This document shows positions 62,594-63,298 of a stretch of 64,000 nucleotides of DNA, in pieces. Source of the DNA: an uncultured Candidatus Saccharibacteria bacterium. GTDB lineage: Bacteria > Patescibacteriota > Minisyncoccia > Phycocordibacterales > UBA9988. Each line of letters starts with the position of its first letter. Positions within the stretch are counted from its first letter, which is position 1. Made by a program: the position numbers and the translations under genes. The stretch is from positions 16,457 through 80,456 of the forward strand of contig CAYNXC010000002.1 of assembly GCA_964401135.1 (NCBI GenBank). The letters run 5' to 3'. Below the pieces are notes generated by a model. It saw nothing but the letters and a program-made list of their open reading frames with translations, was not told where the DNA came from and made no database searches.

Positions 62594-62614
62594 ATGGAGG
62601 TGAGACTTCCATCA
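62594..62614. repeat. REP-like palindromic hairpin, copy 1 (inverted orientation, one G:T)
   Basis: ATGGAGGTgagACTTCCATCA. Overlaps the RAYT stop codon. Confidence 0.8.
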
Positions 62615-63262
62615 ATCAATGGATAACTCGTTATGACTCGAGTCTTCGCGTTCTTGTGCAAGCCAATCGAGAGTCTCTTGATAAAATCGTTCAGGCGTCT
62701 CAAACCATTGAGAAAGAAAGGATGTATCAACAACTTTTATACGACCATTATCATATGCACCGTCCTTCTTAGATAAATAATCTTGGAAACTTGACCAAGG
62801 GTAGGTGATAATGGAAGTCTCACTTCCATCAAAAGGATTACTATGAATGTAATGAGGGAGCCAATTAAAGTGCTCGTCAGAGATCACTGGCTTAGACTTG
62901 AACCTCCCTTGGAAAAGTGCACCGACTCGACTGTATCTCAAGTTAAAATAATTAGTATAACCAGTGCCAAGTTTTCTCATAAACTTAGTAAGCCCATATT
63001 CAACTCGTTGCCGTATCATAAGGTGGTAATGATTTGGCATTAAGCAATAAGCCATCAGCTCAACTAGTTGCCCATCCAATTCATGGCTAAGTGATGGAAG
63101 TCTCACTTCCATCAGACGGTGTGCGTTTGGATCAGTTGCTTCGGTAGAGTTAAAAAGTATTAAGGATGCAATAAAACGAGATCGATCGGCATCATCTAAA
63201 AATATGTCTCTTTTTTCAACCCCTCTATTATAGATATGAAAAATTGTGTCTGTATCATCCAT
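62612..63262 (-). CDS. REP-associated tyrosine transposase (RAYT; IS200-like Y1/HUH transposase)
   Basis: HUH motif in YCLMPNHYHLMI, then ALFQGRFKSKPV and the catalytic Tyr region LPHYIHSNP. The N-terminus IFHIYNRGVEKRDIF is typical of this family. Confidence 0.85.
   Translation of the reverse strand: MDDTDTIFHIYNRGVEKRDIFLDDADRSRFIASLILFNSTEATDPNAHRLMEVRLPSLSHELDGQLVELMAYCLMPNHYHLMIRQRVEYGLTKFMRKLGTGYTNYFNLRYSRVGALFQGRFKSKPVISDEHFNWLPHYIHSNPFDGSETSIITYPWSSFQDYLSKKDGAYDNGRIKVVDTSFLSQWFETPERFYQETLDWLAQEREDSSHNELSID
62811..62831. repeat. REP-like hairpin, copy 2 (inside the RAYT coding sequence)
   Basis: ATGGAAGTctcACTTCCATCA. On the minus strand it is translated as DGSETSI. Confidence 0.8.
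63092..63114. repeat. REP-like hairpin, copy 3 (inside the RAYT coding sequence)
   Basis: TGATGGAAGTctcACTTCCATCA. It is translated in a different frame, as MEVRLPS. Confidence 0.8.
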
Positions 63263-63275
63263 GCGTCTCTATTAT

Positions 63276-63298
63276 TGATGGAAGTCTCACTTCCATCA
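63276..63298. repeat. REP-like hairpin, copy 4 (upstream of the RAYT start)
   Basis: TGATGGAAGTctcACTTCCATCA, 14 nt upstream of the RAYT ATG. Confidence 0.8.

Follow-up and report, generated by a model that had tools for sequence, protein, structure and literature searches.

The window analysed here, 64,000 nucleotides of DNA from an uncultured Candidatus Saccharibacteria bacterium, an ultrasmall member of the Patescibacteria (assembly GCA_964401135.1, contig CAYNXC010000002.1), carries close to one end a gene for a Y1 HUH enzyme resembling the repetitive extragenic palindromic (REP)-associated tyrosine transposases (RAYTs). It is well known that RAYT genes are flanked by their cognate REPs. 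At the present locus four copies of a short palindrome lie around and inside the gene, two of them being translated as part of the enzyme, and the gene and its palindromes together form a small cassette in the 3′ end of rodA. The gene, the palindromes and the motifs adjoining them are the following.

62612..63262, minus strand: gene of the RAYT-like Y1 HUH enzyme, 216 amino acids, with the HUH motif N77-H-Y-H80, the FQG motif and the catalytic Y138 in YIHSNP.
62593-62614 (pattern match 62593-62613), loop GAG on the plus strand: downstream palindrome, two mismatches to the consensus.
62809-62833 (pattern match 62810-62830): internal palindrome, site 2, one mismatch, inside the RAYT-like open reading frame (ORF).
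63092-63114 (pattern match 63093-63113): internal palindrome, site 1, exact, inside the RAYT-like ORF.
63276-63298 (pattern match 63277-63297): upstream palindrome, exact, its centre 25 nucleotides 5′ of the ATG.
63270..63276, minus strand: -10-like box (AATAAT/ATAATA), read from the sequence, 7-8 nucleotides before the ATG.
62582..62591, plus strand: flank motif ATGGCTTAAC, adjoining the downstream palindrome.

The palindromes have the form (T)GATGGAAGT-NNN-ACTTCCATCA, also written GATGGAAGT-NNN-ACTTCCATC, with four occurrences in the window. Searching the whole 64 kb with the pattern GATGGAAGTNNNACTTCCATC, up to three mismatches being allowed, returned exactly these four matches, against a mean of 0.03 in shuffled sequences; none of 100 shuffles reached four. 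Independent repeat finding recovered the same copies as a 25-nucleotide repeat family. An earlier reading of the DNA by eye (the original prediction), which had described four REP-like hairpins in and around a RAYT gene, is thereby confirmed. The final three nucleotides of the downstream palindrome are the stop codon of the gene, and 13 nucleotides separate the end of the upstream palindrome from the ATG. The two internal copies are indeed read in different frames: on the coding strand site 1 comprises the codons CTG ATG GAA GTG AGA CTT CCA TCA (LMEVRLPS), and site 2, directly after the catalytic YIHSNP, the codons TTT GAT GGA AGT GAG ACT TCC ATT (FDGSETSI), positions 62809-62833 reading F-D-G-S-E-T-S-I-I. 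Folding of the coding strand as single-stranded DNA gave -8.9 kcal/mol for the upstream copy (z -5.3), -8.8 kcal/mol for site 1 (z -4.7), -6.4 kcal/mol for site 2 (z -3.4) and a weak -2.3 kcal/mol for the copy at the stop codon (z -0.4). This last copy is degenerate in the window genome, with a G:T on the plus strand and an A:C on the coding strand, and perfect in the orthologous loci L211, L217 and L106. The ATGGCTTAAC flank is part of the repeated unit in the window's clade. An RTTAAGCCAT flank likewise follows the flanking copies in L106 and L217, a related one follows a solo copy in L016, and the related flank ATGGCTAAG lies beside site 1 at 63083-63091.

The assignment of the gene to the RAYT-like Y1 HUH enzymes was upheld by the Pfam Y1_Tnp match, by the HUH and YIHSNP motifs and by the fold. 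The Pfam match (E 1e-7) covers residues 67-141 only. The NCBIfam model REP_Tyr_transpos (NF047646) gave 35 bits, under its 80-bit cutoff and over residues 63-156 only, so that the protein does not score as an equivalog of the curated RAYTs. An AlphaFold (AF2) model of the 216-residue protein (mean confidence, pLDDT, 77.6) found its best fold match in the PDB (Foldseek) in 4ER8, the E. coli TnpAREP with bound REP hairpin (E 3.4e-5, probability 1.0), followed by IS608 TnpA; a sequence-profile search of the PDB gave no match, and the link to solved structures comes from the fold search only. In an alignment of 26 homologous proteins (alignment A1; 207-232 amino acids) NHYH and the tyrosine motif YIH[SL]NP were invariant, the consensus including LMPNHYHLM, LFQGKFK, LPHYIHLNP and Y.WSS. 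The ratio of non-synonymous to synonymous substitution rates (dN/dS) was 0.11-0.12 against orthologues and, because of this low value of about 0.11, the gene is considered functional. The exact protein was present on 23 contigs, always at the same locus, which is shared by orthologues down to 71% identity, and no relatives were found in viral contigs. The enzyme belongs to a very large Patescibacteria family. In the structure model both internal sites fall in low-confidence coil, site 1 (around residue 54, before the HUH motif) between helix 24-37 and the HUH strand, and site 2 (around residue 146) after the tyrosine, in agreement with the surface loops proposed for them in the original prediction.

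Because the peptide E-V-x-L-P encoded by 63092-63114 was conserved family-wide in alignment A1, the DNA of homologues was gathered, 80 from metagenomes plus orthologues from assemblies; 82 distinct loci of 37-87% identity were compared (designated here by L numbers). A recognisable, locus-specific palindrome was present in 69 of the 82. Among the 68 loci with enough flank, 54 had an upstream copy, centred mostly 25-60 nucleotides before the ATG, and a downstream copy was found in 49 of 65 assessable loci, from about -23 to +100 nucleotides of the stop codon and mostly within +35. At site 1, the codons that align with residues 50-56 of the window protein, 37 of the 82 homologues have a palindrome, the most distant of them being about 40% identical; position and codon phase are the same in 35 of these 37, and the peptide E-V-x-L/P preceding the HUH motif is the translation of this palindrome. 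A site-2 palindrome occurs in 11 of the 82, the window included, ten being in the phase that gives G-S-x-T-S; five loci have both sites occupied. This distribution speaks against the suggestion that the internal copies are recent, lineage-specific insertions. Site-1 palindromes are perfect, with a 3-nucleotide centre and arms of 7-17 nucleotides, and are always centred on GARGT-NNN-ACYTC, the outer arms varying by locus; family-wide, arm length ranges from 7 to 22 bp. At positions 7-10 from the loop, copies within one locus agreed in 3.30 of 4 outer-arm bases, and those of different loci in 1.53 of 4. The stem sequence is particular to the locus and common to its internal and flanking copies. 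The loops of the upstream and downstream copies are inverted in 28 loci and in the same orientation in 12; the inverted bracketing seen by the original prediction is thus real in the window, and across the family it is a tendency and not a rule. In the window's clade, site 2 takes the place of a segment of about 30 amino acids present in most relatives, and in L153 it is a plain 16-amino-acid in-frame insertion that repeats the site-1 peptide of that locus. These data show that the layout is ancient and family-wide, not a local accident.

The sequence at the internal sites was then compared with what the peptide would require. Synonymous-codon shuffles produced a mean stem of about 2.6 bp, as against the 7-17 bp observed, and the per-locus p was below 1e-3 in 24 of the 55 internal hairpins tested. 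For covariation we used 36 distinct site-1 sequences chosen for an intact inner 6-bp stem, and because of this selection the test is unbiased for the outer seven pairs only. These outer pairs were paired in 58-94% of sequences, with up to six standard pair types. Two-sided changes were found in 11 of the 13 stem pairs, and the covariation score was 0.548, against 0.159 after shuffling and 0.06-0.14 in slid registers. Furthermore, the arm codons were identical at synonymous positions across orthologues despite a dS of 0.6 to more than 1.8, or saturated. In L211, a CTG>CTA change in site 1 is paired with TCA>TTA (Ser to Leu), which restores pairing and is private to that copy; the upstream copy of the same locus has decayed, and the internal ones remain perfect. 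Since compensatory changes keep the pairing even at the cost of an amino acid, it is the nucleic acid that is under constraint rather than the peptide. At site 1 it is the hairpin, not the peptide, that is conserved. The original prediction had named the same peptide encoded by non-palindromic DNA as evidence that would speak against it; in the homologues the peptide was palindrome-encoded, with a codon choice going beyond what the peptide needs.

In front of the gene, 56 of 83 loci had a -10-like hexamer, in many cases extended by TG, whose end was 3-14 nucleotides from the start codon (median gap 7 nucleotides); at a control position inside the gene the count was 11 of 83. It is on this family-wide positional enrichment that the promoter assignment is based. 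The arrangement suggests a leaderless-type promoter, with the upstream palindrome over its -35/spacer region. Because this copy precedes the -10 box, a DNA-level role is favoured for at least the upstream palindrome, and the Watson-Crick pairing of the stems, which lack a G:T excess (2 G:T against 2 C:A, few cases), points in the same direction. Its position in the putative promoter also provides circumstantial support for the idea of autoregulation.

The cassette and the host gene are delimited as follows.

61439..62575, plus strand: rodA (FtsW/RodA family; Pfam PF01098, E 4e-91), the host gene, with the insertion at its 3′ end.
62517-62575 (about 59 nucleotides), plus strand: functional copy of the rodA tail, encoding ..RAFHRDDMQNEFVGV*.
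62576..63323, minus strand: inserted cassette, 748 bp between the tail copies, 807 bp with one tail copy.
63324..63383, plus strand: rodA tail remnant (..TRAFHRDDMQNEFVGV*), direct repeat D2, 91% identity, severed from rodA and abutting the pilin stop.
63389..63982, minus strand: type IV pilin-like gene (Pfam N_methyl and T2SSG), the far-side neighbour, outside the cassette.

From the rodA side, the cassette consists of a linker, the downstream palindrome, the RAYT-like gene with its two internal palindromes, the promoter region, the upstream palindrome and a 25-nucleotide spacer. It is bracketed by a direct repeat of 55-60 nucleotides (62517-62575 and 63324-63383) with a spacing of 807 nucleotides. 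By tblastn the remnant is a 17-amino-acid match to RodA residues 362-378, and the tail motif HRDDxxNEFxG is native to RodA, being present in all 120 closest homologues. The remnant stands at the pilin stop just as the real tail does in the empty allele L216, where RodA is 94% identical, the gene order is the same and the rodA and pilin stops are 1 nucleotide apart, with neither RAYT nor hairpin; a second empty allele, L218, has a RodA 73% identical. A solo-hairpin allele was found in L221 (GCA_964574105.1, CAZNKH010000022.1, 2753-2774; RodA 91% identical), in which GATGGAAGTgagACTCCCATC lies 1 nucleotide after the rodA stop and both the RAYT gene and the tail remnant are missing. The filled alleles (the window, L211, L217, L220 and L106) have the cassette in common, and the tail remnant of the window recurs in the other four. 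At the same place in rodA, L159 carries a different RAYT (43% identical) with the hairpin ACCGAAGT-tta-ACTTCGGT; its RodA is 72% identical to that of the window, its locus DNA is about 81% identical to the empty L218, and the rodA-derived repeat extends further into rodA. Taken together, these alleles show that the cassette is an insertion in the rodA 3′ end, the tail having been duplicated so that rodA stays intact. Direct repeats of 26-130 nucleotides surround the cassette at other loci, several coinciding with the 3′ end of a neighbouring gene.

Solo copies of the palindromes were also seen elsewhere in related genomes, in support of the original prediction; they occur in both orientations, and some lie inside other genes. 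The distant flanks of the homologue loci, 284 kb in all, contained 12 exact copies (about 1 per 24 kb), most intergenic and 5 of the 12 inside long ORFs, and the Vogelbacteria genome of the orthologue L106 has a solo copy on another contig. A motif scan of genome contigs with a loose pattern over 596 Gb listed mostly chance or unrelated matches. Among the matches listed, 25 were from Patescibacteria, with palindromes 8-24 bp long, 23 of which reached at least 9 bp, whereas those from outside the candidate phyla radiation (CPR) stopped at 8 bp, the length required by the pattern. Some CPR genomes had at least 2-3 copies, each on its own contig, and roughly half of the CPR matches listed fell within long ORFs. 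The REP-like nature of the hairpins is thus upheld, and since dispersed copies are few the element is REP-like but sparse.

We consider, with a probability of about 0.72, that the hairpins are the cognate REP-like palindromes of the RAYT-like Y1 HUH enzyme, that they and the gene form a cassette of about 750 bp in the rodA 3′ end, that this layout is family-wide and that it is maintained by constraint on the nucleic acid. In the mechanism proposed, the palindromes would extrude in single-stranded DNA as hairpins, which the encoded enzyme would bind and might also nick and rejoin. The ends of the cassette would be formed by the flanking copies, of which the upstream one would also serve as an operator. 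The internal copies may be additional binding sites that tie the level of the enzyme to its own gene, a form of autoregulation in cis; alternatively, they may be kept uniform via conversion stimulated by the enzyme. We infer that they have such a role rather than being passengers kept by conversion.

Several points weigh against this interpretation. That the enzyme binds or cuts the hairpins we infer from their co-location and co-variation and by analogy with TnpAREP and IS608. Perfect in their stems, with a 3-nucleotide centre and A/T-rich or ATGGCTTAAC flanks, the palindromes have neither the GT[AG]G foot nor the bulge of the REPs in classical REP-RAYT units. The pattern search found no further copy in the remaining 63 kb of the window, as the original prediction had noted by eye, which is far under the density of classical REPs, and the source genome is not among the matches listed in the scan of genome contigs. 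Internal copies are absent from 26 of the 69 palindrome-bearing loci and are therefore not essential. The -10 box, whose assignment is consensus-based, was not called when the window was scanned generically for consensus promoters. The flanking duplications of 26-130 nucleotides are unlike the product of Y1 peel-and-paste transposition, in which nothing is duplicated. Finally, neither loop flips nor excision were seen among 10 samples of the same species, in which the cassette is 100% identical, so that no ongoing activity was observed.

The most serious alternative, which we nevertheless hold to be unlikely, is that the internal copies are passive passengers: old in-frame insertions of selfish REP-like elements in tolerant surface loops, serving no function of the enzyme and kept perfect by short-tract gene conversion from the flanking copies. 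The low-confidence coil at both sites and the 26 of 69 members that do without internal copies are consistent with this view. So are the varying exact placement of site 2, including the 16-amino-acid insertion of L153 with its repetition of the site-1 peptide, and the flanks extending beyond the palindrome that upstream and internal copies have in common in L176 and in the Vogelbacteria clade. In L131, site 2 and the stop copy share one hybrid arm pair, which suggests copying. There is precedent as well, both in the in-frame REPs of subclass 2.4 tnpAREP genes, judged to be peripheral (PMC6006769), and in the REPs or Rickettsia palindromic elements (RPEs) found inside unrelated genes (PMC3733652). 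However, one codon phase and position in 35 of the 37 site-1 copies implies long retention, and certain compensated changes or extensions belong to internal copies only and cannot have come from conversion, as in the L211 pair and the 13-bp stem of L131. Likewise, the internal stems of L178, L171 and L153 reach 16-17 bp against 9-13 bp in their flanking copies, and L211 keeps perfect internal copies next to a decayed upstream one.

An action at the RNA level is highly unlikely. The upstream copy would then be an insulator or terminator, the copies within the ORF checkpoints of translation or stability and the one at the stop codon a 3′ stabiliser, by comparison with the repression of the IS200 transposase, for which hairpins are used. 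In its favour, transcription runs through the internal and stop copies, stable stems closed by 3-nucleotide loops would hinder ribosomes within an ORF, and REPs located 3′ of genes have been proposed to be RNA elements (PMC3733652). This explanation meets several difficulties, however. The upstream copy lies before the putative -10 box and is conserved as well as the others; no T-run follows the downstream copy; the loop changes orientation freely; solo copies, some of which are inside other genes, are found either way round; and Rfam gave no match in 62300-63600 at E up to 1. The pairs of G:U type expected as an RNA-only signature on the sense strand are not in excess, and we rejected this signature on the small number of cases available.

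Least probable of all is that the palindromes are operators bound double-stranded by a dimeric regulator (the C-terminal helical part of the enzyme or a host factor) and not hairpin substrates: perfect dyad symmetry with the conserved core GARGT-N3-ACYTC, the upstream copy in the promoter region, the helix-turn-helix (HTH)-like tails of subclass 2.1 proteins (PMC6006769) and the DnaA-box-like repeats beside the palindromes of a side branch would suit such a regulator, but the arms vary from 7 to 22 bp, a symmetry continuous to the 3-nucleotide centre with compensatory outer-arm changes fits intrastrand pairing and not a dimer footprint, operators in an ORF and at a stop codon have no obvious role, and the closest solved relatives bind hairpin single-stranded DNA.

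Compared with known systems, the locus is a REPtron with in-frame REPs, and not a new category. The REPtron is a RAYT/TnpAREP gene flanked by cognate REPs, of the E. coli yafM type (Nunvar 2010, Ton-Hoang 2012, Messing 2012). The present locus shares with it a single-locus Y1 HUH gene with a Y...NP motif and a fold nearest to hairpin-bound TnpAREP, locus-specific palindromes on both sides with mostly inverted loops, solo repeats elsewhere in the genome, and co-variation of enzyme and repeat between lineages. It differs in copy number (about 1 per 24 kb of relatives' flanks and none more in the window, against tens to hundreds), in a score below the NCBIfam RAYT cutoff, in the upstream repeat lying in the promoter and the in-frame copies inside the gene, and in the presence/absence alleles and long flanking duplications of the whole unit. 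With respect to the single-copy, vertical inheritance that is a RAYT trait, the gene is at one locus in 23 contigs, yet empty, solo-hairpin and filled alleles and a different RAYT allele occupy the same site.

In-frame REPs have been described inside tnpAREP genes of TnpAY1 subclass 2.4 (Bertels group 4), generally between the HUH motif and the tyrosine (Quentin et al. 2018, PMC6006769). As in the window, the gene has cognate palindromes not only on its flanks but also inside, where they keep the frame and map to the periphery of the structure. The motifs are NH[IFV]H, WQ and YIxNNP in that subclass and NHYH, FQG and YIH[SL]NP here, its REPs are long with a GT[AG]G "double foot", and its internal REPs lie between HUH and Y whereas those described here lie before HUH and after Y. 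Moreover, its insertions vary in length and sequence and were judged to be of little impact (PMC6006769), in contrast to a phase-fixed site with structure-preserving covariation. Judged by published motifs and not by a tree, the Patescibacteria family resembles subclass 2.1, which corresponds to Bertels group 1 or the "TIRYT" genes (Di Nocera 2013, Quentin 2018). Members of this subclass have the motifs NH[YF]H, FQ and Y[IV]HLNP, an SS tail and a median length of about 238 amino acids, and no REP-like structures were found with them (PMC6006769); some have terminal inverted repeats (GGGGWSAS), a DnaA_C-like HTH tail has been reported for the proteins, and the counts of flanking 16-mers in group 1 are only slightly raised (Bertels et al. 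2017). The likeness extends over NH[YF]H, FQ, Y[IV]HLNP, the SS of the tail (here Y-x-W-S-S), a length of about 216-235 amino acids and a low copy number. The Patescibacteria family differs by its hairpin palindromes at both ends and inside.

IS200 is likewise a unit of about 0.7-0.8 kb with nearly only a Y1 HUH gene and with hairpins near both ends, the 5′ one placed to affect expression. Its TnpA is of about 150 amino acids with Y...Q, against 216 amino acids with Y...NP here; its end hairpins are imperfect and non-identical, where the present palindromes are identical and perfect; and it is multi-copy without target duplication, as opposed to one copy with flanking repeats of 26-130 nucleotides. 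The RPEs are translated in-frame palindromic repeats in coding genes, as are about half of the Patescibacteria solo copies seen, but they measure 100-150 bp and have no enzyme gene, whereas the unit described here is of 21-40 nucleotides and tied to a putative cognate Y1 gene. A literature search found no paper describing this Patescibacteria family or its palindromes.

RAYTs are the textbook example of a "domesticated" transposase, and their action on hairpins in vivo is unsettled. The largest RAYT-like subclass was reported without hairpins; as its Patescibacteria relatives carry perfect palindromes at fixed positions, this subclass may have REPs after all. Close relatives in which one and the same site is empty, holds a solo hairpin or is filled offer a handle on the turnover of cassettes and hairpins in reduced genomes, and the system (a 216-amino-acid protein and a 23-nucleotide hairpin) is small enough for direct biochemistry. 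The internal sites are also a natural example of overlapping nucleic-acid and protein constraints, in which amino acids are dictated by a DNA hairpin across a deep radiation. A broader proposal is doubtful and is put forward as speculation: there might be a Patescibacteria-wide class of autonomous cassettes of about 0.75-1 kb, in each of which the gene of a Y1 HUH enzyme has the hairpins used as substrate at four set places. The in-frame hairpins would then be functional in self-recognition or self-limitation and not tolerated insertions, and the cassette, travelling as a small circle, would integrate at the 3′ end of an essential gene (rodA, for example) and restore it. A circle integrating through a short homologous segment would, we conjecture, yield flanking repeats of the kind observed. 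If this were true, a RAYT-like gene held to be REP-less and domesticated would be a mobile element with a new mode of insertion.

Several observations on individual loci complete the analysis. The contig L176 (Ga0210049_1144862, 1089 nucleotides), which holds a RAYT-like gene with palindromes, has an exact terminal overlap of 127 nucleotides (1-127 and 963-1089) and could be a circle of 962 bp, a tandem repeat or a repeat-bounded unit; its upstream and in-frame palindromes share a flank of 12-13 nucleotides on each side, with the central base flipped. In L220 the RodA protein (P0129) is without eight residues (MSHRRSIR) at the inner edge of the duplicated tail, possibly a scar of recombination between tail copies. 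An argument for a foreign allele, according to which the tail copies differ only synonymously, was dropped, as 3 of the 7 changes in the remnant are non-synonymous with L216 as outgroup.

On the far side of the cassette, the strain L005 from another sample differs from the window at 63400-63483 by 19 substitutions, all in the 3′ part of the pilin-like gene, whereas the 10 samples show 100% identity in the neighbouring cassette and the end of rodA; this points to variation localised to the pilin C-terminus. Several homologue loci adjoin pilin or pilus genes. A link to type IV pilin genes was not supported, the prepilin motif occurring at 0.047 per kb near homologues, which is not above the 0.0625 per kb of the window.

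The palindromes themselves also vary in arrangement. L119 (about 1420-1460) and L200 (about 1520-1560) have two tandem palindromes at site 1, in L119 with opposed loops and with the same doublet upstream. L131, which is 62% identical and lies in another genomic context, has two arm variants, GATTGAAGT and GATGGAAGT, at 3050-3075, 3228-3256, 3503-3527 and 3706-3730; the hybrid arm pair of its site 2 and stop copy is mismatched and looks like copying between positions caught midway. L145 has two divergent RAYT-like paralogues (1190-1982 and 4718-5645) about 3 kb apart on one contig. In a side branch (L146, L164, L170, L185, L192, L194, L201 and L205) the palindrome cores are GATTT/GATTC or GGTGT, and the DnaA-box-like repeats of this branch (TGTGGATAA and GGGGATAAG) adjoin the downstream palindrome and recur 100-290 nucleotides 5′ of the gene.

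Among the matches listed for ATGGAAGT-NNN-ACTTCCAT (L012-L130), many are from Flavobacteriaceae, with no RAYT-like gene within 8 kb; as their palindromes stop at the required 8 bp, most may be chance matches or a conserved coding motif. At L016 (4449-4610, Vogelbacteria RIFOXYD1_FULL_51_18, MHTL01000011), a second locus of that genome, a solo hairpin with a AATGAGCCATT flank and a spacer of about 70 nucleotides is accompanied by another remnant like the rodA tail (RAFHRDDIQNEFMGG*) and by the end (3′) of a pilin-like paralogue, from which it appears that a module of hairpin, tail remnant and pilin end was duplicated to a site with neither rodA nor RAYT.

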